Assembly: GCF_022846255.1 (NCBI RefSeq)
Contig: NZ_AP025682.1
DNA: 64,000 nucleotides
Source of the DNA: Escherichia coli
GTDB taxonomy: Bacteria > Pseudomonadota > Gammaproteobacteria > Enterobacterales > Enterobacteriaceae
Reading direction: 5' to 3' (one strand)
Shown: positions 26,314 through 43,739 of the stretch, in pieces
Position numbering within the stretch: position 1 is the first letter of the stretch
How the letters are laid out: the number at the start of each line of letters is the position of its first letter
The notes under the pieces: generated by a model
Databases searched by the model: none
Told to the model about the DNA's origin: nothing
Seen by the model: the letters and a program-made list of their open reading frames with translations, nothing else
Translations under genes and position numbers: made by a program

Positions 26314-27427
26314 CGCAATCCTTTTATTTCTGGCGTACGCTCTTTAAGGCATCCGGCTGAGAGGCTAATGATCACTCCTCGCTCACAACGGACCTTCAGC
26401 TCAGCTGCTCCGGCCGCTTCATGCCATGAATGTACGCAGCCAGCCAGAATATTAAGGTGCGGATTTCAGTTCACTTGCCAGCCCAGTGATACAGGACAGT
26501 AATGACCAACAATTTTGTATTGACACAACAAGTTGCGGCCCCGGTTCGTGGAGGAGATTAAACGACTGTAGCCGGGGCCACTGAAATGAAGAATTCAGAG
26601 AGACTGAATGATATGTCGCACCTTCAGTGAATAGTGTAAAAACCGGGATATTCTCATCCGGGATTACCCACTCATACTCAATGCGTAACTTTAGTGCGGC
26701 CCCACAGGTAAGAGCCGGACACATTTGTTGAGTACGCTGCAGAATTGGTAACCGGGGCCCTGCAGTCTTTAACTCTGTGTCTTGTGTTGCTCATTTGCCA
26801 CAAAATCCTGGTACGCCTGCTCAATCATTTCATTCAGCAGTTTTTTTGAGGGGACACCACGACTTTGGGTAATACTTTCAGGCTGTTTGTGGATTTTTCC
26901 GGACAGTTTCAGCGGACGGAACCATCAGCATGTTCATCACGCCTTTTTTGTTGCTCCCGGGCACTTTTTCAGCTCATCCACAATATAGCTGCTCTTCTCG
27001 CATTTTTGCCGATTTTAAAAATGCGAACAAAACATCCGTACATGATGTACAGATTAAACTGCCAGGGACTGGTGTCAGAAAGCCTCCGGTTAGCCTGCTC
27101 TTTCCGGAATGTGCCGGTTATGAAAAACCGGAAATTCAGTCTCTGTTGTAAGATGTACCCTCTGATACTACGTTTTCGTTTTCTCTGTGTATTTAACTCA
27201 CTGTATTTATTGTCTTTTTAAGCCTGACTGATATTCTCCGGTCATAGTGTGCCGGATAGACATCCCGTAACCTTCTCATTTTTATATAAAAATACCTGCA
27301 CTGTCTTCAGCGCATCTGTCTCCTTTAAGTAAAAAATGTTTTCACGTATTGCTGTAAATTCATTTTAAATCAGTATGTTATCCTGATATTGCTGTCTCCT
27401 GGTTTGATGCGTAATCGTTCTGCCTTT

Positions 27428-27461
27428 CTGGATGATTCTGGATGATTCTGGATGATTCTGG
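27428..27461. repeat. 10-bp tandem repeat (CTGGATGATT)x3 in a non-coding decayed stretch
   Basis: Direct reading. Confidence 0.9.
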
Positions 27462-28797
27462 TGCTTCCGGGTGCATTCTCCTCTGCACATGCAACAGTTC
27501 GTCATCGCCACGTGCCCAAAAAGCATATAAAAACGAATCGAATCTGATCGTTTTTTCAATCGTTTTTCACAGGAATTTCGTAGGGTGTTCTCCGCTATAG
27601 CCTCCATATTTGCTGTCTTTTTCTTCATAAATCGTATGCAATATAACCAGTCTGTCAAGACATCTTCCCTGCTGTTGAGGTGACGATCTCATTTCTGGTC
27701 TTTTCCGGGAGAGAGACGGTCAGATGAGCGAGCCGGATTTACTGCCAGAGGTACTCCCCGCGGCAGAAAATAGTGCTCCTGTTTCCGCAATCCGGGATCG
27801 GTAACGTCCCATGGTTAATGCCACTTGCAGCGTCAGGCACTGCAGGTTTACGTCGTGATCTGATTTCTTCTGCACTTATCCCGATCACGGAAGCTCCCCC
27901 TGCGCAGACATCGGTTCCTGCCGACATCTCACAATACCGCCAGGCTGTCATGCAGTAACACCCGCAATGCGGTCTGCGGTTTTAAGCGCACTCTCCTGTT
28001 TTCAGTGCACCGATAAGCGTTATAGAAAGTCTGGGGTGAGTTACTGAATGTCTGTTAAGTGGTGCCGTGGGTGGAGACTGCTTACTTTTCCACAGCAACT
28101 GCAGTCATTCAGGATGCTCAGGAGAGAATATGTCAACGCCACGAGCCGGGCCATTTTCATGCCAGCCAGTATATTTTCTACACTGATGCAGTCTGATTTT
28201 CACCATTCCATCCTCACTGATTGTCGTGTTGTTTTGGGTCATCACCACAGCTTTCCGTTTCTCTTTTAATCGGTAACGCTCTCCTTTGATATTCAGCGTG
28301 GTTGAGTGATGCAGCAGTCAATCCAGGAGCGCTGTTGTCCGGCAACCACCATATCAACTTCTTCCCGGCGTGCCGGCGCTGGTATCCAGGCCGGGTTTCG
28401 AAGCGAAGCGTTCCTGACGGACTCATTGACATCCGGGCCGGATGTAGTCATGCAGCATGGAACGTCCGCCCGTATACACTGACGGCGTCCGGCCGTGTAC
28501 AGAGATCGGTAAAATTCGTTACTACAACTGTTCCTGAATATCTGACGAAGAAACATTCAGCAATAACATCCGGCCGTGTACATCTCTTTTGCGGTGCAGG
28601 GAGCACTGTCGCCATGTACTTATTGTCACCAGGGTGAGGCATGTACCGCAGCATGCCAGCTCAGCAATGACAGGATGCCCTTAAGACATCCGTCATGGCT
28701 CAGTATGATGACGACGAACACGCTCTGCAGGTGAGCATGCAGGACCGGGGGTATCATCATTTCCGTATTTTGCCGCAGCTTCCGGAAACAACCGGCA

Positions 28798-29400
28798 TCA
28801 GTTACGGTTACCGTCAACCGTTGTGCGGTATGCCAGGAGCACGTACTGATCCATCAGATCCGTCAGTGCTGCGTTCTGCTTCTGACGGTCGATGATCCAT
28901 TCCCCCAGCTCTTTTTCTGATTTCCGTTTCAGGTTCTCCGTCCAGTCGTCAAGGCTGTTTCCGGTCATTAAATCAAGCCAGCAAAGCCAGACCAGTTTGA
29001 GGCGCAACTCCGTGCCACCAAACTGACGGAAGAGGCTGATCAGTTTATTTGCCAGAGAACGCTGCCTCAGACGTTCACATTCAGACAGCAGAATCCCTTC
29101 CAGCATCGGATGATGAACCAGCAGATGTTCGCTGGTGCATAAGTTCACCACCAGATCATCATCCAGGGGCGGCGTGGCCCGTTTGTCAGAGCCATAAATC
29201 AGCCGGTGCAGACTCCGGGGTACGATGGCAATCTTCGGTTTTTCACCATTGAATGACACCCACCCGGGCGTCAGATTATGGAAGTAGTGGATATTCGGAT
29301 GACACACGCCCCAGGATACGGCGTGCCGGGTGAAGCCGGTCAGCCATTTCTGGTAGCTTTCGTGGAGCAGCTCGTAACGGGTCTGATACTGTGGTTTCAT
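28798..29400 (-). CDS. Hypothetical protein immediately downstream of alpA (P4-like/satellite-type cargo)
   Basis: About 200-aa ORF; start placed at MKPQYQ because GAGGAA lies 7 nt upstream; co-oriented with alpA. Confidence 0.4.
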   Translation of the reverse strand: MKPQYQTRYELLHESYQKWLTGFTRHAVSWGVCHPNIHYFHNLTPGWVSFNGEKPKIAIVPRSLHRLIYGSDKRATPPLDDDLVVNLCTSEHLLVHHPMLEGILLSECERLRQRSLANKLISLFRQFGGTELRLKLVWLCWLDLMTGNSLDDWTENLKRKSEKELGEWIIDRQKQNAALTDLMDQYVLLAYRTTVDGNRN

Positions 29401-29493
29401 TTTCATATTCCTCACGGGGGATAACAGGCAGCAGAGTGCCGCCGGCAGGCCGGAGATTGCGTCTGCTGTGGGCGAAGGGCCAGTGGTTAAAAA

Positions 29494-29700
29494 TTACGGA
29501 CGGGACTGTGCAATACGCGCCTGCAGCCAGGCTTCCACTTCACTTTTCAGCCAGCGGGAGCTGCGGCCGAGTTTGATGGGAGCCGGAAAGGCCCCATCCT
29601 TGATGAGCTTGTAAAACCACTTATCGGTCAGGCCGGTCAGCTGAGTGATAAACGTCATATCGACCATCTGGTCATCCATCAGCGAAACTGGGGTGGTCAT
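29494..29700 (-). CDS. alpA: AlpA-family phage transcriptional regulator (prophage regulatory protein)
   Basis: 68-aa ORF with the AlpA signature ...ITQLTGLTDKWFYKLIKDGAFPAPIKLGRSSRWLKSEVEAWL... Confidence 0.7.
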   Translation of the reverse strand: MTTPVSLMDDQMVDMTFITQLTGLTDKWFYKLIKDGAFPAPIKLGRSSRWLKSEVEAWLQARIAQSRP

Positions 29701-30083
29701 AAAAATCTTCTCCGGATGTTGTTAATCTCAGCCGGCGTTGATGATGAAAACAACGCACCACCTTCACCGGCATAACAACCGGGGAGAAACGTAAAAAATC
29801 AGTAGGGGAATATTCCTGCCAGGAGAGAAACTGTTGTGTACAGGCAATACAGGTTGTCTGTTTTGTCAGTGAAGCCGGTATAAACGGAAGATGATTTTGT
29901 GTTGCCGGAATATGGGATGGCGTTTTGCCGTGACAGGATCAGTATTTTCAGTGATGATTATTACTGTGCAGGGGAGTACCGGAGAGAAACCACGCCCTGT
30001 ACCTGCCAGAGCGGTGGTTTGTATTGACTGAACGGAAGATAAAGCGAGGTAAACACTGTTGTGGTGAGCGGAGAAGACTGAGA

Positions 30084-30875
30084 TTATTCTCTGTAATTAC
30101 AAACAACAGTGATCTTATCCGGTTTTTTTACCGTTACGGGTTTCAGGGGATCAATTTTATAGACCGGGGTAATGACCACGCCGGAATTTATGGAGAAAAG
30201 CGGGATCCAGCAATAAACGTCAGGATATTTCTGTGTCTCCGGAATACCTTTTGTGCCAGAGGCCATCAGATCTTTAACGCTCACGAAAAATGACTTCCTA
30301 AGATCAAAAAAGTACTCGTTATATATCACATCCTTTGCCAGCAGGATGACTGCATTACCAACAGCCGATTTTACAGGTGTTTCATCAGGTGGATTATCGT
30401 GATTGTATATTGTTCTTTCTATATAAATAAAGCAGGCATATTTCGTCTTCTCCCCGGACAGTTGCATCTGGTATTCGCAAATGTCTTTGATACGCCGGCT
30501 TTCAACCCGTCCAATCATCTTATCCCGGCGATAGTGTCTTTTATGTTTCAGCGCGTACAGAACACCATTTGAACTGTCAAACTCCAGGATTTTTTTGGTG
30601 AAAAGTTTGTTTTCCCAGATTTCCAGACAATACTTCTCTGCGCTGACGACATTGCGTTTGTGGGGAAGATCCCGTTGATACACTCCATTTAATAAGCGTG
30701 ACTGCAGTTCGCCTGCAAGTTGATAGTAACAGTTAATGTCATTAAGGACAGGTGCTGTGGCGTTGAGTAATGTGTTGATTACCTTAGAGCGCGAAAGTTT
30801 GTGGATATGACAGTACTCATCCACAATTCGCAGCGTCTCATCACTGGTCATATTGAAAGTTATACGTGTTGTCAT
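30084..30875 (-). CDS. Hypothetical protein, possible N-terminal ribbon-helix-helix DNA-binding domain plus about 220-aa domain of unknown function
   Basis: 263-aa AT-rich ORF; N-terminus RITFNMTSDETLRIVDEYCHIHKLSRSKVINTLLNA is RHH-like by pattern; no strong RBS seen. Confidence 0.4.
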   Translation of the reverse strand: MTTRITFNMTSDETLRIVDEYCHIHKLSRSKVINTLLNATAPVLNDINCYYQLAGELQSRLLNGVYQRDLPHKRNVVSAEKYCLEIWENKLFTKKILEFDSSNGVLYALKHKRHYRRDKMIGRVESRRIKDICEYQMQLSGEKTKYACFIYIERTIYNHDNPPDETPVKSAVGNAVILLAKDVIYNEYFFDLRKSFFVSVKDLMASGTKGIPETQKYPDVYCWIPLFSINSGVVITPVYKIDPLKPVTVKKPDKITVVCNYRE

Positions 30876-31207
30876 GATGAAGTTTTCTGTTAATCATACT
30901 GGTTGATATGCATAACATTTCATAAAAAATGCTTTTAATTCATATAATTGATTTTTTGACTGGTTTTATCCTCGTGTGGTGGAAAGCAGTATTACTGCCA
31001 CTGTAGTCAGCATAACGCTATCACACAGAACCACCGAAAATGAAGCATTGCTCAGGGGGAAGCTGCCACTCGTATGAGTTCTCTGAACCATGATAACCAG
31101 TATTTTTCGTTTTGGGTGATTTGTTTATCGTTACAGCCATAAGCAGTTCATGTACCATTAAAAAATAATTAAGGTTAATTAGTATTATTTATAGAAGTAT
31201 GTTTATG

Positions 31208-31345
31208 TAACTCTACCTTGTAACTCTACCGTGTAAATGAACCCTGTAATTCTACCTTGTAAATGAACTCTGTCATTGTACCCTGTAATTCTACCTCTAC
31301 CTCTACCTCTACCTCTACCTCTACCTCTACCTCGTAAATACACCT
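31208..31345. repeat. Iteron-like repeat block: seven imperfect 12-13 bp direct repeats (TGTAA[C/T]TCTACC type) followed by (CTACCT)x7
   Basis: Direct reading; the hexamer array spans 31291-31332; about 0.9 kb upstream of a Rep-like gene. Confidence 0.8.
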
Positions 31346-32227
31346 TGTAACCAAGTCCTGTAGAAGTCTGTCTCATAGAAATATGTTCCTGTGCAGTGAT
31401 ACTCTCTGTAGTAGTACTTGTAACTCTGTCCTTAACTCTCTCTTCAGTAATGTAGTCCCGCAACACCTGAATATAAATCTGTAATGTACACACACTGACT
31501 GTAACGTGCTTTGTTAAGTAATACCTGTTATTTCTTCTGTTATTTTTCCTGTTGTTTTCTGTATTTTGTTGTATGGAGTAATAACTCTTCTGAACCCGTC
31601 ATCACCTTTATAGCTAAGAGTATGACTTCGCCAGTGTTGATACTGTGGATAACGGTGATTAAGGAATTACTGTTAATGATCTGTTCCTGCAGCTCACCTG
31701 ATGAGTTTTGGTAGTAATACGTAAAAGAGTATGCCTTATGCCATTAAACAGCCTTACGGAATGTTGTTTAACCCTGTACCTCTGTTACTCATGTAGTACG
31801 TTGCGGAAAGCTACGTTAATTGTAATATCTGGTTATGGCGTTATGCCTTCAGTATTAAAAACATCTTTTACCGGAGAAACAGGGAAGTGGGGAAAGGCTT
31901 TCGGGATAACGTCAGGCCATTCTGACGGTATTACGTTAATCACAGTACAGGATAACGGGAGGGTAATGGAATTTTAAACCAGAGTAGTTCCACTGTTGTT
32001 CACTGGAAAAAGTGATTTCCCACGCGCGTTATAAACGCCTTTCCGCTTCAGTCTGGTTACCAGAGCTTCAGGCGTTATATGCGCTGTAACTGGCTGTTAC
32101 GTATGCTGTTCTCTGTCTGCTTCTGATACCCCTGGACGTCGTTACCGGAGGTCACCCTGCCTGATAACGTTTTCTTCAAAAATTACGCCAGCGCTTCTTC
32201 CTGTGTTACAGAACACGAGGAAGAAAC

Positions 32228-32827
32228 ATGAAGACTTACAACACCAATCCCGGTTACGAAATGGATCCCCAGCTCCTGACACACTTTAACCAGCATCTGG
32301 ATTCATTATTCGGGGTATATTCGAAACTGTTACCGTTCAGAATGGATTTTGCTTACCGAAAAAACACCCTCAGCTACAGGTGTGCCTGCAGGTACGCCAT
32401 GTGCGCGGAGATACTGCGACTGATTAACGAAGTGGGAGAGAAACTGGTCGGGTATGCCTGGGTAATGGAATATACGGAACGTAAAGGGCTTCACATTCAT
32501 TTTGTGGGCTATCTGAACGGTCAGAGCCACAGGAGTTCGTATCTGGTATCCAGATTGATGGGAGATATCTGGAGGCGGGTTACCGAGGGTGATGGTTACT
32601 ACCACTGGTGCCGGTTTAATAAAAATTATCCGGTAAACATTAACCACGTCATTCACTATTCAGATCACAAAGCGGTGAATGCCTTACGCTATGCCCTCAG
32701 CTACCTGGCCAAACGAGAACAGAAAGAATGTGGCATCATCCTGAAATGCAGCGGGCTTCCTGAAAAAAGTAACCGGGGTCGACCGCGACTGGGCAGCACC
32801 CTGCCGGAGACTTATTCTCTGGTGTAA
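32228..32827 (+). CDS. Putative HUH-type replication initiator-like protein (YagK/YfjJ, inovirus Gp2-like family)
   Basis: 199-aa ORF with a GAGGAAG RBS; HUH-like motif LHIHFVGY and downstream Tyr-containing motif YALSYLAKRE; family assignment from memory. Confidence 0.45.
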   Translation: MKTYNTNPGYEMDPQLLTHFNQHLDSLFGVYSKLLPFRMDFAYRKNTLSYRCACRYAMCAEILRLINEVGEKLVGYAWVMEYTERKGLHIHFVGYLNGQSHRSSYLVSRLMGDIWRRVTEGDGYYHWCRFNKNYPVNINHVIHYSDHKAVNALRYALSYLAKREQKECGIILKCSGLPEKSNRGRPRLGSTLPETYSLV

Positions 32828-33192
32828 GACCCTGAACGACAACTACGGGCTGGCGCTAATTGTTACGGTCGGTTCCGGAGGCCACTTCAGGGACTCTGCG
32901 CATTTTTTACGACATGGCTATTCCGTATGAACCATACGGAGATTTAACCATGGCACATTCTTTACCATTCCTTCCGGCAACCGATACAGCGCATCCCCCG
33001 ATGTCCATCCCTGCCTGCTGACAGTTTTTTACGCCGGTGGGCCATTGTGTGACAACCACAGTGCTGTAACAGCAACCAGCCTGCTTTACCCAAACTCCAG
33101 TCCAGATTTTAACTGAACCGCCATTCACCCCCTGACCACACTGCCCGTACCGGGACAGCTGTTGCCTGCGTGTCGTCTGGCGGCTGAGGAAT

Positions 33193-33582
33193 ATGACGAT
33201 GTACGCAAAATCCTTTATTGCATTTGATGGCAACGGGCGTCTGACGGGTGCCCGTACCGCACAGACTGCACCTTACGATCGCTACACTTACCACCTTTGC
33301 GGCAGTGCGCTCAGATACCACCCGCAATACGACACTGAGCGTCCCTGGTTTGAACACACTGACGACGGGCTGACGGAGCACGGTCAGCAGTGCCCTTATG
33401 TCAGACCGGAACGCAGGGAGATACAACTGATTAAGCGTCTGCAGCAATTCGTACCGGATGCCTTACCCGTGGTGCGTAAAGCCAGCCGGCACTGCAGACA
33501 ATGTCATCACGATTATTATGGGGAGCGGTACTGCACGCACTGCCATACCGGGCACTTCAGTGAGGAGGGGGTGGCAGAATGA
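33193..33582 (+). CDS. Cys-rich hypothetical protein (zinc-ribbon-like), paralog 1
   Basis: 129-aa ORF with a TGAGGAA RBS; motifs C-x2-C ... WFEH ... C-x2-C-x8-C-x2-C-H-TG. Confidence 0.45.
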   Translation: MTMYAKSFIAFDGNGRLTGARTAQTAPYDRYTYHLCGSALRYHPQYDTERPWFEHTDDGLTEHGQQCPYVRPERREIQLIKRLQQFVPDALPVVRKASRHCRQCHHDYYGERYCTHCHTGHFSEEGVAE

Positions 33583-34004
33583 ACGGTATAAAAACGGGGC
33601 TGGGGATCACGCCGGGTGAACACATAATCAGTGCTGATTCTGCACTCAGCAGAAATATCCGGCAGTGTTTCTGCCTTTCCTGTCATGGCCGGTTGATTTT
33701 GCAGACAGATGCTCAGGGGGCATGGTTTGAGCATGATTTATATGCCCTGAGCGAGCAACAGAAGGCAGCCTGCGTGGTGCTGAATCCGGAGAAGTCCCAC
33801 CCTTACATTGAGGATATGGCGATGTTTTTATCGCCATTACCGGTCGTGCTGGAGTGGCATTGTATGATGTGCGAGGGGCTTTTTCATGGGAAGAAGTTCT
33901 GTGAGGCCTGTGGTACGGGGATTTATTGCAGAGCAACATGTACGAAGTATGTTTACAGGTACCAGCCAGATTTGTACCAGGACTGCGGAGGTGCACTCAC
34001 TTAA
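33579..34004 (+). CDS. Cys-rich hypothetical protein (zinc-ribbon-like), paralog 2, translationally coupled to paralog 1
   Basis: 141-aa ORF; ATGA start/stop overlap at 33579-33582 with a GAGGAGGGGG SD; same C-x2-C ... WFEH ... C-x2-C ... C-x2-C-G-TG pattern as paralog 1. Confidence 0.45.
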   Translation: MNGIKTGLGITPGEHIISADSALSRNIRQCFCLSCHGRLILQTDAQGAWFEHDLYALSEQQKAACVVLNPEKSHPYIEDMAMFLSPLPVVLEWHCMMCEGLFHGKKFCEACGTGIYCRATCTKYVYRYQPDLYQDCGGALT

Positions 34005-34706
34005 TCCGAAATGCCCGCTCTGCTCAGGGCGTTCAGGCTGACTATCAATGGCATACATTTTATCCGGTGTTTCGCACCCACACCGTGCAACGACTCGACA
34101 CCGGATATCCGCAGTCCCGCTTACCTGAATAAAACCCGGGGGATTGATTGTGTACTGTGGTGTGAAATCGCACCGTGATCGCTGATTCGCCGAATCCGCA
34201 CTGTGGTGTCAATCAACCACACGCGAGAGTCGTCTCAGGCTTCGCCTGCCTCAGGACGATTTCTGCATAGCTAATTCCCGGGGCAACATTTATAGAGGCG
34301 CTGTGCGCTCTGATGGTCGCCACTTCTGACCCGGACCATGCTCCTGATATGTCGGAATATAATGTGATGTTAGGCATCAGAGAGGAATATTTCGATGCCC
34401 CTAATCTGGGGCGTTTGATTCTGGATGTCTGGAGCAATCCGGGCTTTGTGTCACCGGACGAATCAAAGCAGTACCACCCGGGATGTGGCGCTGGATCGTC
34501 ATTCACCGGACTGTGAAGACATACTTAAAGAGCTGATATGGGCGTTCAGTGATTTCGCCCGCGATCATCGTGGTGTGTGTGATCCGGAAGCCCGTTACCT
34601 CGCCGGTAATCCTTGGTATCCGTAGCAGGCCAGCTCTGAAAGCACAGCTCAGCAGATTCCCCGCATTCGCACAACCTTCATAAATCTCACAGAGGACATT
34701 GTGGCC

Positions 34707-34916
34707 ATGTTGACCACAACAAGCCACGACAGCGTATTGCTGCGTTCCGATGATCCCCTGCTCGACATGAACTACATCACCAGTTTCACCGGCATGACCG
34801 ACAAATAGTTTTATAAACTGATCAGTGAAGGCTATTTTCAAACTGGGCGGTACAAAAGCGAAGTGGAGCAGTGGATGCAGCAGCGAATAGAGGGAGCGTG
34901 GGGGCAGCAGGATGAA
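34707..34916 (+). pseudogene. alpA-like regulator pseudogene (in-frame amber at codon 34 replacing the conserved Trp; normal stop lost)
   Basis: Translation MLTTTSHDSVLLRSDDPLLDMNYITSFTGMTDK-stop-FYKLISEGYFQTGRYKSEVEQWMQQRIE parallels the intact AlpA at 29494-29700; TAG at 34806-34808. Confidence 0.5.
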
Positions 34917-35816
34917 ATGTGTTGTGATGCCGGTACGCTGGCATTGTGCAAAATGCCGGCGCTACTATTGTGGAAATCAGCCCTGTCCCTGGTGCTGGCG
35001 ATACTCCCTGCAGACATTCTCCGGTCAGCCAATAGGTTGTTGCTCTTTCCTGATCGATTCGTCATTCCATTCTTTTTGTTTATAATGGGCATTACACTGG
35101 TGTTGGCGTGTTTACCTGCGTGTCTGCACCGGTTCAGTAAAATTAGAAAAGTTCAGAGTCGGGGGAAATCCGGCGTTTTGTTCAGCAGGCGGTGGATCAC
35201 TGGCCAAATCTGTTGGCATTTCACTTCACGTTCCATTCGACAGAAGGAAACATCTACGGGCAACAGATTCATGCATTCTGCACTTCCTTTTACCAACAGA
35301 TACACAAACGTATTACTGCACGTACTCACACGACCAGTCCATCATCGCCGTTGGTGTTACACTGGCTGCTGGAACAACATGGAGGAGCAGTAATACGATG
35401 CGTATTGCTCCTCAGCCAGACGAGTATTTGTCATCCGCGAGCCAGCGTCACGGTTGATGAAGAATGTTCGAAACTGGTGGATTTATTGCAACAGATCTGG
35501 CCAGTGATAAGCACTGGCGGACAATGCCAAGTGGAAAGGTGTTTTCAGGTTGCCCGGGGTGATACATCAGAGCAATACGTTGCGTTAAAAACAGATGCGT
35601 TGTCGTTTGCTGTGTCGGATCACAAATCATCCGGTGCAGAGTAGTATTCTGGCTGTATTCTGGTAAATCAGCGTATTATCGATATATTATCGTACTATCA
35701 GAAACCGTATCGTCTGTTGATGGCTAGACTGGCCCCCCTGAATCTTCAGACAACCAATATCACTTATTTAAGTGATAGTCTTACTACTAGTTTTTAGACT
35801 AGTCATTGGAGAACAG

Positions 35817-36182
35817 ATGATTGATGTCTTAGGACCGGAGAAACGCAGACGGTGTACCACTCAGAAAAAATCGATATTGTTCAGCAGAGCCTTGAACCGG
35901 GGATGACAGTCTCTCTCGTTGCACGGCAACACGGTGTGGCAGCCAGTTATATCTCTGGCGCAAGCAATACCAGGAAGGAAGTCTCACTGCTGTGGCTGCC
36001 GGAGAGCAGGTTGTTCCGGCCTCTGAGCTTGCTGCCGCCATGAAGCAAATTAAAGAACTCCAGCGCCTGCTCGGCAAGAAAACGATGGAAATGAACTCCT
36101 TAAAGAGGCCGTCGAATATGGACGGGCAAAAAAGTGGATAGCGCACGCCCCTTATTGCCCGGGGATGAGGAGTAAACGTCGT
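35817..36182 (+). pseudogene. insC: IS2 orfA (insC) disrupted by frameshifts
   Basis: The frame from ATG 35817 stops after 29 codons; the conserved InsC segments ([53 protein letters not shown]) appear in three different frames. Confidence 0.5.
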
Positions 36183-42428: not shown

Positions 42429-43739
42429 TTATTTTAATGGACTAATATCACTATTATTATCGCTATCTGTGATTTTTTCCCCATTCACGGAGATCATTCC
42501 CTGGATATATGAATCCCATAGATGTACGTCACCTTTATGAAAAATAATGCATGACATTGCGATTTTTTGTACTTTATATATCTGTTTATAGTATTCTTCT
42601 GAGTTTAATGGTGTATCTTTCAAGCTTTCATTCCTTGCTGGAAGAATCTTGACGGGACAGATAAAATCTGTATCCCCGAGTGAAAAGACATTAACTCCGG
42701 TTATAAAAAAGATACCCGGAATGTCTTGATGCAATCTCGTATTCCAGACTTGAGGATTAAACAGTTTATATGAATATTTATTTACATCTATATAATATTG
42801 ATGAGGACGCCAATCACTGATACCCGACATACTCATCGTCATATTGATAATTATATCAGGAATAGGTTTGAATAATACACTTAGAATGAACAATATGGCA
42901 GGAGGGAGTATTGCGATAGATAGCAAAGAGTTCAACCCTTCTTCTTGTTTTTCTTCTTGCTCATTTATCACTATCACACCTGGCAACATTCCTAAAAAGA
43001 TAAAAGCTAATGCAATGCAAGAAAATGATAGAAACTGTGATAAGATATCTGCACTCTCTTCAAGTCTGATCTTATTTGTCAAAAATAGCAGGGGGATAAT
43101 CTGAACAAGCCCGGGTAGAATTAAACATAAAGGAAGAGTGTATCTTATCCTGTTCCTGGGACGATATTGTTCGTGATTCTCGTGATTCTCGTGATTCTCG
43201 TGATTCTCGTGATTCTCGTGATTCTCAATGTTCTGTTCCCGAGGGGTATTTTTAGTGAATATTAATTTTTCTGAGAGGAAATATGAGACGAAATAATTAA
43301 ATAATACTATTAGTATTACTTCTGATATGGATGGATATAGAGTATTTTCTTCTGAAAAGGTAGACAGAACTGACTTTAGCACTAATGAAAAATAGAAAAC
43401 AACACTGTTCATATAGCAAATTATAGCAATTCTGTGCGCGATTCCTTTGTGATTTTTATAATAGTCTTTATGCCATGTATATGTATACACCAATACATGA
43501 GAAGATATAAAAATCAGTGAGGTTAGAGCCATTAGAGATAAAAGGATAAATATAAAGATAACACTTAAATAAAACTTTATGTCTATTGAGTCGAAAAACA
43601 AATCAAGTCTACCGAGTCCTTGCAGATAGAACCATATTGCAGATATGGCGCATCCTGTACTAAATACAGAAGACGTTAACATGGCGAGAAAAGCTTTATT
43701 ATTTAAATGTGAAAAGATAGATCTATTCATTATAAGCAC
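42429..43739 (-). CDS. Hypothetical polytopic membrane protein with an (ENH)6 His-rich repeat loop and a C-terminal soluble domain
   Basis: 436-aa very AT-rich ORF with multiple hydrophobic segments; 9-bp tandem repeat encodes ENHENHENHENHENHENH. Confidence 0.5.
   Translation of the reverse strand: MLIMNRSIFSHLNNKAFLAMLTSSVFSTGCAISAIWFYLQGLGRLDLFFDSIDIKFYLSVIFIFILLSLMALTSLIFISSHVLVYTYTWHKDYYKNHKGIAHRIAIICYMNSVVFYFSLVLKSVLSTFSEENTLYPSISEVILIVLFNYFVSYFLSEKLIFTKNTPREQNIENHENHENHENHENHENHEQYRPRNRIRYTLPLCLILPGLVQIIPLLFLTNKIRLEESADILSQFLSFSCIALAFIFLGMLPGVIVINEQEEKQEEGLNSLLSIAILPPAILFILSVLFKPIPDIIINMTMSMSGISDWRPHQYYIDVNKYSYKLFNPQVWNTRLHQDIPGIFFITGVNVFSLGDTDFICPVKILPARNESLKDTPLNSEEYYKQIYKVQKIAMSCIIFHKGDVHLWDSYIQGMISVNGEKITDSDNNSDISPLK
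43172..43225. repeat. 9-bp tandem repeat (CGTGATTCT)x6 inside the membrane-protein CDS (in-frame, encodes (ENH)6 on the - strand)
   Basis: Direct reading. Confidence 0.9.

Follow-up and report, generated by a model that had tools for sequence, protein, structure and literature searches.

A strain-variable tandem repeat array between divergent operons of an Escherichia coli island, and the putative HUH-like protein encoded beside it

Rolling-circle, parvovirus and CRESS Rep origins combine short tandem repeats that are bound by Rep with a hairpin that carries the nick site. The origin-binding nuclease domains of parvovirus NS1/Rep bind tandem tetranucleotide repeats. PF11726 serves as a replication-protein model for Microviridae and Inoviridae (10.1101/555375), and Gp2-like proteins are listed as likely core genes of AlpA-type islands that are transduced by a jumbo phage in Pseudomonas (10.1101/2024.08.29.610337). 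In pathogenic E. coli, the hha paralogues hha2 and hha3 are linked to the flu-yeeR cluster (PMC4864382, PMC6480617), and the regions that carry them are reported to be repressed by H-NS/Hha in strain 042 (PMC6480617, PMC4864382). Here we describe a tandem repeat array and a downstream gene for a Gp2-like protein of 199 amino acids (aa) in a 64,000-nucleotide stretch of E. coli contig NZ_AP025682.1 (assembly GCF_022846255.1), which we call the window. An initial annotation, made from the sequence of the window, had proposed that the repeats and the protein form the origin and initiator of an integrated replicon or satellite. This discovery does not hold up; the array is a variable-number tandem repeat (VNTR) in an island control region.

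The array lies in a spacer of 1352 bp between two divergent gene sets (30876-32227, GC 31-40%, falling locally to 0.31 at the AT-rich stretch beside the array). The coordinates of the features are collected in Table 1. With Tandem Repeats Finder, 11.5 copies of a 13-bp period are detected at 31206-31351 (75% matches, score 89), together with a period-6 array of TCTACC at 31290-31333 with 7.3 copies and 100% matches. When parsed in register, the longer period resolves into nine units of the form TGTAA-N4-ACC-N, with units 1-7 at 31206-31296, units 8-9 at 31333-31358, and six extra copies of CTACCT in between. The core TGTAANNNNACC occurs six times in the window, five of them inside the array, whereas the mean in shuffled sequence is 1.83 and six copies were reached in none of 100 shuffles. 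This confirms that the array is a real tandem repeat that exceeds chance. The repeats are thus where the initial annotation had put them and its seven-copy hexamer array stands; however, its count of seven 13-bp repeats has to be raised to nine.

The units are not uniformly conserved. Across six alleles, which supply 16 distinct units, there is no variation at positions 2, 3 and 5 and strong conservation at positions 1, 7, 10 and 12, whereas positions 6, 8, 9 and 13 vary freely. Every TGTAA motif in the array and in the next 170 bp has the same orientation (10 sites in 31206-31500). In an informal comparison, PhoB, OmpR, CRP and LexA-type sites were set aside as incompatible in spacing or half-sites.

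The flanks of the array align well among E. coli genomes, but the array itself is unlike in every lineage examined. Eleven alleles have array lengths of 67, 80, 93, 106 and 119(+36) nt, which correspond to five to nine units in exact 13-bp steps. The hexamer CTACCT is present in seven copies in the window and in strain 82.0312, in eight copies in the sister strain 82.0311, and in a single copy in CFT073 and others. Between 82.0311 and the window there are no substitutions across the approximately 2 kb of 30900-32900, and the extra hexamer is the sole difference. An 8-bp unit, (TGTAATTC), is repeated five times in strain A3 and 15 times in F829. The array stretch, which is 361 bp long in its longest form, falls into about 18 length classes between 186 and 361 bp in 60 genomes drawn evenly from the 747 that carry it, and the longest alleles are those of the window and its sister strain. 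In strain B2C the whole array has been deleted between the flanking direct repeats ATAGAAGTATGT and ATAGAAATATGT. Inside large clones, for example in ST131-type genomes, array lengths are stable.

Head-to-tail repeats whose copy number differs among closely related strains are the hallmark of a VNTR, and the array is a strain-variable VNTR, most likely a slippage-prone minisatellite. Its type does not track the alleles of the proteins encoded around it, namely Gp2, AlpA and the YagM-like protein of 263 aa (p263). For instance, CFT073 has a 13-mer array and F829 an 8-mer array, and their p263 proteins are 99.2% identical. UPEC957C carries an array of the window type, yet its Gp2 is nearer to those of F829 and A3.

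We therefore favour, with a probability of roughly 0.55, the reading that the array is a length-polymorphic minisatellite made by slippage in a divergent island control region, rather than a cognate origin for the Gp2-like protein. Under this reading, an array of 13-bp units would gain secondary 6-bp or 8-bp expansions by slippage. The array lies in the AT-rich spacer that separates a pair of divergent operons in an island backbone of the CP4 type, carried by pathogenic E. coli, with the yagM-like, alpA and p205 genes forming the minus-strand operon, and a hha2-type gene, the YfjJ/YagK Gp2 gene and two zinc-ribbon genes forming the plus-strand operon. This spacer is probably a silenced control region of the H-NS/Hha type. 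Any effect of the array would fall on transcription or silencing of the flanking operons, as a change in unit number would alter the spacing within DNA of the H-NS/Hha-silenced kind. Control of gp2 expression would instead lie in the leader of that gene, some 50 nt before it, where a hairpin would occlude the ribosome-binding site.

In complete E. coli genomes the region was found in chromosomes only. The stretch 30900-32900 gives 873 E. coli matches and the array stretch 787, all of them chromosomal. Counted over 5426 complete E. coli genomes, the former is present in 776 and the latter in 747 (approximately 14%), again in chromosomes in each case. In plasmid records the region appears only in mislabelled chromosomes and in CP088535.1, and is otherwise absent from true plasmids. 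CP088535.1, from the E. coli blood isolate E16EC0562, is recorded as a circular 'plasmid' of 41,067 bp. It holds an integrase, yee-type genes, the hha-gp2-zinc ribbon module and insertion sequence (IS) elements, has no replicon or relaxase type, and carries a different IS3 in place of most of the yagM-like gene. This record looks like an excised island that was assembled as a circle, and it is the only hint of an episomal existence. The region is absent from viral contigs, where a pattern scan for a pair of adjoining units returned 22 single matches by chance and no homologue of the region.

Homologous loci in other genera carry the genes of the module and no array. Scanning one genome per species, we collected 24 loci from Escherichia, Pectobacterium, Yersinia, Serratia, Trabulsiella, Citrobacter, Gilliamella and others. 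Their usual order is gp2, alpA, zinc ribbon, zinc ribbon and p205 on one strand, which is conserved across Enterobacterales; by this comparison, the arrangement in the window, with alpA and p205 on the opposite strand, is derived. Long forms of Gp2, of approximately 360 aa, also adjoin alpA, in islands that carry type I restriction-modification or GmrSD defence genes. Tandem Repeats Finder detected no array upstream of any gp2 homologue in the 24 loci. Similarly, at 21 loci no 8-mer is reiterated above the shuffle expectation in the 1350 bp preceding gp2, compared with seven copies in the window. In Citrobacter the yagM-like gene is also divergent from gp2-alpA, with a spacer of 387 bp that lacks the array, and on another metagenomic contig the yagM-like gene lies beside an integrase. 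As judged from the loci examined, the array is specific to the E. coli version of the module and does not accompany gp2 or the yagM-like gene elsewhere.

The Gp2-like protein carries a motif set of the Rep type. Its reading frame contains the motifs L88-H-I-H-F-V-G-Y95 and Y159-L-A-K162, and an identical RefSeq protein (WP_000860844.1) is named 'inovirus-type Gp2 protein'. The search proposed in the initial annotation, with profile models against the Rep and YagK/YfjJ families, returned weak matches to the Rep-type family PF23343 REP_ORF2-G2P (E=1.6e-4) and to PF11726 YagK_YfjJ_C (E=1.9e-4). There is also a match to PHROG 7120, a family of unknown function, at 1.5e-6. With a profile built from close homologues, 1.84 billion representatives yielded 2237 proteins at E<=1e-3. 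Many of these are the forms of about 360 aa, in which the Gp2 domain is at the C-terminus, and retrieved homologues bear precomputed PF11726 or PF23343 labels. A search of PDB sequences with this profile gave nothing meaningful, and the searchable literature holds no experimental work on, or demonstrated activity for, the YagK/YfjJ family.

In an alignment of 29 short-form homologues, with identities down to 27%, the invariant residues are R38, D40, G75, E81, H89, H91, W115, Y159, K162, G184 and R187. The H-x-H motif and downstream tyrosine that had been noticed in the protein are thus invariant in this set and come with a complete YxxK. The order of the motifs is that of Rep proteins, with RxD, an acidic residue before HUH, HUH, and then YxxK. 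H89-I-H91 falls in a predicted strand (E87-97), as in the HUH superfamily, and Y159 and K162 are in a predicted helix (H147-161) located C-terminal to it, as is the case for the YxxK motif. An AlphaFold2 model of Gp2 (predicted local distance difference test score, pLDDT, 79.5) shows weak structural similarity to parvovirus NS1/Rep, SIRV Rep and circovirus Rep. It is reasonable to regard the HUH assignment as well supported at the level of motifs and merely consistent at the level of the fold. The Gp2-like protein is probably a HUH enzyme that acts on island DNA. In addition, residues 182-188 form a tail, S-x-R-G-R-P-R, which includes the invariant G184 and R187. This RGRPR tail resembles an AT-hook and suggests binding to the minor groove of AT-rich DNA.

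The distance from the end of the array to the start codon of gp2 is approximately 870 bp, in agreement with the 0.9 kb given in the initial annotation. However, this interval is not an empty spacer, as it contains the remnant of a hha paralogue of the hha2/hha3 type. The remnant has an early stop codon and two internal deletions, and is a pseudogene. At the corresponding site F829 and A3 have an intact hha of 70 aa, and CFT073 has a truncated copy of 49 aa; in all three strains the hha paralogue is annotated some 230 bp before the Gp2 gene. An IS3-family element separates the array from gp2 in UPEC957C and in many other genomes of uropathogenic E. coli (UPEC).

A candidate control element is found immediately upstream of gp2, which appears to have its own proximal control region about 50 nt before the gene. 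The leader carries the motif AAAAATTACGCCAGC followed by a hairpin (-19.3 kcal/mol, z = -3.3) that is more stable than any of 200 shuffles. The segment with both elements is invariant in three E. coli alleles, and a related motif, AAAAAT(T/A)ACGCCAG-like, is visible in an alignment of the leaders from other genera. Most of the homologous loci in other genera are also predicted to form a hairpin at this position, with stems that differ in sequence. RNAalifold returned no consensus for these leaders because MAFFT left the hairpins out of register, and the support therefore consists of folds of the individual sequences. The hairpin would occlude the Shine-Dalgarno sequence and may serve in translational control. 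As its loop is not conserved between genera, translational control fits better than a nick site.

Several observations weigh against the favoured reading. The unit core T-G-T-x-A ... A-x-C is kept while other positions drift, as is expected of a reiterated protein-binding site. The conserved AT-rich palindrome that adjoins the array and the DnaA box 290 bp away loosely resemble the architecture of an origin. The Gp2-like protein has an invariant AT-hook-like RGRPR tail. In favour of that reading, on the minus strand, array units that are two apart form a -35/-10-like pair (xTTACA-16-TAGAxT) facing the yagM-like/alpA operon, and with such pairs an effect of the array on transcription of the flanking operons is plausible. 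Because the unit core is conserved, the main rival explanation is an operator, or contingency switch, in which the TGTAA-N4-ACC units would be binding sites of an island protein and their number would heritably tune or switch the divergent operons that control excision and activation of the island. Candidate ligands are the YagM-like protein, the N-terminus of which is a weak match to a ribbon-helix-helix-type family, AlpA, the zinc-ribbon proteins, and Gp2 via its AT-hook. The conserved core positions among the 16 distinct units, the uniform orientation of the ten TGTAA sites, the location between divergent operons with genes for three or more putative DNA-binding proteins, and a copy number that differs between near-identical strains, as in known contingency loci, would all fit an operator. 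However, the type and spacing of the array (13-bp versus 8-bp) are independent of the p263, alpA and gp2 alleles, the homologous Citrobacter spacer has no array, and at least one E. coli allele has none left. In addition, lengths are stable in large clones, so any switching is slow, and the structure model of the YagM-like protein failed (AlphaFold2, pLDDT 41), so that its ribbon-helix-helix DNA-binding fold is putative. We regard an operator role as doubtful.

The proposal of an origin module is less probable still, and we consider it unlikely. It holds that the array provides initiator-binding repeats after excision of the island, with the AT-rich palindrome as unwinding element and the HUH-like Gp2 as initiator. 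The invariant E81, H89-x-H91 and Y159-x-x-K162 of Gp2 and its weak fold similarity to the origin-binding nuclease domains of parvovirus NS1/Rep are in its favour, as are the palindrome, the one perfect and conserved DnaA box, the 41-kb circle of CP088535.1 with its integrase and module and no recognised plasmid replicon, and the deep conservation of the gp2-alpA pair in integrative islands. Classical iterons, however, are at least three repeats of about 17-22 bp in helical phase, whereas the units here are 13 bp, head-to-tail, out of helical phase, and partly replaced by 6-bp or 8-bp units. Nor do repeats and protein vary together: gp2 is without repeats at 21 other loci, there is no co-variation of Gp2 and array within E. 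coli, and one allele has lost the array by deletion. No nick-site hairpin or conserved nick motif adjoins the repeats, as it would in a rolling-circle double-strand origin, and no inverted repeats of note are present in or beside the array except the AT-rich palindrome. Folded as single-stranded DNA, the array strand is no more stable than its shuffles (z = 0.16). The DnaA box is not part of a cluster, and DnaA-like sites occur at chance frequency across the window (21 observed, 18.8 expected). The hha pseudogene or IS3 in the gap of approximately 870 bp and the exclusively chromosomal matches also stand against an origin. The initial annotation was prepared to abandon its proposal if the protein had no family match and the repeats were a common intergenic element; a family match is present and the repeats are not dispersed, so neither was the case, and the origin idea is weakened on the other grounds given here. 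A broader version, in which YfjJ/YagK Gp2 proteins would be the replication initiators of CP4-type islands, the TGTAA-N4-ACC array their Rep-binding element, and slippage a means of tuning amplification, is offered by analogy and strikes us as very unlikely. The least credible explanation, to which we give hardly any weight, is that the array is coding or acts as RNA, either as a 96-aa minus-strand open reading frame (31203-31493) with a (RG)7 tract that spans it, or as a structured or sponge RNA made from a sigma-70-like site (10/12) at 30919-30948 that is directed into the array. The 13-bp and 8-bp steps between alleles would shift any frame, which rules out the (RG)n frame as a gene; there is no Rfam match, and the array strand is no more structured than shuffles. 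The minisatellite in a divergent control region thus remains the reading that we prefer.

Table 1. Features of the repeat array, the Gp2-like gene and their surroundings, in window coordinates
Feature	Position	Strand	Basis and remarks
Minisatellite, nine in-register 13-bp units TGTAA-N4-ACC-N	31206-31358	+	Tandem Repeats Finder and in-register parsing
Perfect (CTACCT)7 microsatellite	31291-31332	+	Tandem Repeats Finder; expansion of the 3' end of unit 7
Flanking direct repeat, left ATAGAAGTATGT, right ATAGAAATATGT	31191-31202 (left), 31375-31386 (right)	+	Repeat search; brackets the array
Strongly AT-rich stretch	31160-31205		Holds palindrome TAATTAA-GG-TTAATTA (31166-31181); conserved in all aligned alleles
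Single perfect DnaA-box 9-mer TTATCCACA	31644-31652	-	Conserved in five aligned alleles
Remnant of hha2/hha3-type hha paralogue	~31966-32056	+	Alignment with intact F829 hha and truncated CFT073 copy
Leader of the Gp2-like gene	32178-32225	+	AAAAATTACGCCAGC motif 32178-32192; hairpin 32195-32225 pairing with Shine-Dalgarno GAGGAAG
199-aa YagK/YfjJ ('inovirus-type Gp2') protein, HUH-like nuclease candidate	32228-32827	+	Open reading frame, Pfam, RefSeq, alignment
Two overlapping 'putative zinc ribbon protein' genes	33193-33582, 33579-34004	+	Downstream of the Gp2-like gene, same strand
263-aa YagM-family protein (p263)	30084-30875	-	PF27701 UCP007319; divergent from the array
AlpA-type excisionase/regulator gene	29494-29700	-	TIGR01764 and PHROG excisionase families; Pfam Phage_AlpA on homologues
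205-aa hypothetical protein (p205)	28798-29415	-	Accompanies alpA in other genera

The surroundings of the array are those of an integrative-island backbone, which also fits the integrated element of the initial annotation. According to the annotation of the matching record, the locus is inside a composite pathogenicity island that adjoins kps capsule genes, and the minus-strand side beyond p205 carries genes for a YeeP-like GTPase, Ag43, DUF932, antirestriction, RadC/JAB, CbeA/CbtA and DUF4942 proteins. Over the 2 kb of 30900-32900, the window and the chromosome of uropathogenic E. coli 82.0312 are 100% identical. The match of the window to this strain is limited to 10885-34283 (99.06% identity) with divergence beyond, and 82.0312 is on that account a mosaic relative. 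From 34283 on the two depart, and a second YagK/YfjJ-domain gene of 82.0312 is absent from the window. For 28000-52000, the coverage by any one complete genome of the collection is at most 37%. No tRNA gene was found in the 64-kb window, and thus there is no anchor for an att site. An Rfam scan of 28000-36000 (E<=1) gave a chance match to CRISPR-DR13 outside the region and nothing else.

Of the neighbouring proteins, p263 belongs to a family that RefSeq names 'YagM family protein' and that is uncharacterised; it had no match in the Pfam-A version searched. NCBIfam has no family for Gp2, p205 or the zinc-ribbon proteins. The zinc-ribbon genes co-occur with gp2 and alpA in many genera. Two further tandem repeats were seen elsewhere in the window. 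One is a perfect 9-bp repeat, TCGTGATTC x6.2, at 43171-43226 inside the minus-strand reading frame 42429-43739. It encodes (ENH)6 in a predicted membrane protein of 436 aa that has no NCBIfam match, and is a candidate coding VNTR. The other is a 10-bp repeat, TTCTGGATGA x3.6 with 100% matches, at 27426-27479 among gene fragments to the left of the alpA operon.

The module is present in CFT073, Nissle-type and ST131 lineages among others, and is part of the backbone of islands with genes for capsule, Ag43 and toxin-antitoxin systems. Should the alpA or hha-yfjJ operons prove to be tuned by the array, this would be a rare case of repeat-mediated heritable variation in the control of an E. coli island, and the array would also be a convenient typing marker. 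If instead Gp2 were an initiator and the array its origin, the island backbone would be a conditionally replicating, satellite-like element with a hypermutable origin. A better-supported side result is that AlpA has a core partner in the YfjJ/YagK family, in islands of Enterobacterales and also outside this order. Members of the family keep the complete HUH/YxxK signature, the AT-hook-like tail and a conserved hairpin at the ribosome-binding site, which makes the role of the family in islands directly testable.

The locus shares features with several described systems and differs from each of them. It resembles iteron origins, such as those of pSC101, P1 and the SaPI ori, in that direct repeats adjoin an AT-rich segment, with a single DnaA box and, no more than about 1 kb away, an initiator-like gene. 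However, iterons are 17-22 bp units in helical phase, whereas the units here are contiguous and 13 bp long; their copy number and type vary freely despite near-identical proteins, and relatives lack the array. Moreover, the putative initiator would be a HUH nuclease and not an iteron binder of the Rep/helicase type. With rolling-circle, parvovirus and CRESS Rep origins the locus has in common a HUH Rep-like protein and short tandem repeats as a possible binding element. In contrast to these origins, no hairpin is found by the repeats, and the only strong hairpin is the one at the ribosome-binding site of gp2.

The YagK and YfjJ proteins of the E. coli cryptic prophages CP4-6 and CP4-57 are similar to the Gp2-like protein in family (by Pfam and RefSeq naming), in size (about 190-210 aa), in their island context adjoining alpA, and in the succession of HUH and YxxK. 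The Pfam matches here are weak (E of about 1e-4), with no NCBIfam model. Most other genera have the order gp2-alpA-zinc ribbon-zinc ribbon, whereas in the window gp2 is preceded by the hha remnant and is split from alpA.

For the array itself, contingency loci and VNTRs such as the 7-bp repeats upstream of the Haemophilus influenzae hmw genes and the loci used in E. coli multiple-locus VNTR analysis (MLVA) are the nearest comparison. These are likewise tandem repeats, found in intergenic control regions, with copy numbers that differ between otherwise identical strains. Here, units of 13, 8 and 6 bp occur at one site, the variation is slow enough for clonal fixation, and it is known from sequence alone. 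For the setting, the closest described systems are the hha2 and hha3 regions (PMC4864382, PMC6480617), which are also island modules with a hha paralogue near flu-yeeR and IS flanks, and are reported to be repressed by H-NS/Hha. The upstream repeat array is not described in those two reports, and the hha gene of the window differs in being a pseudogene. As in those regions, Ag43 and yee-type genes are located close by, on the alpA-operon side.

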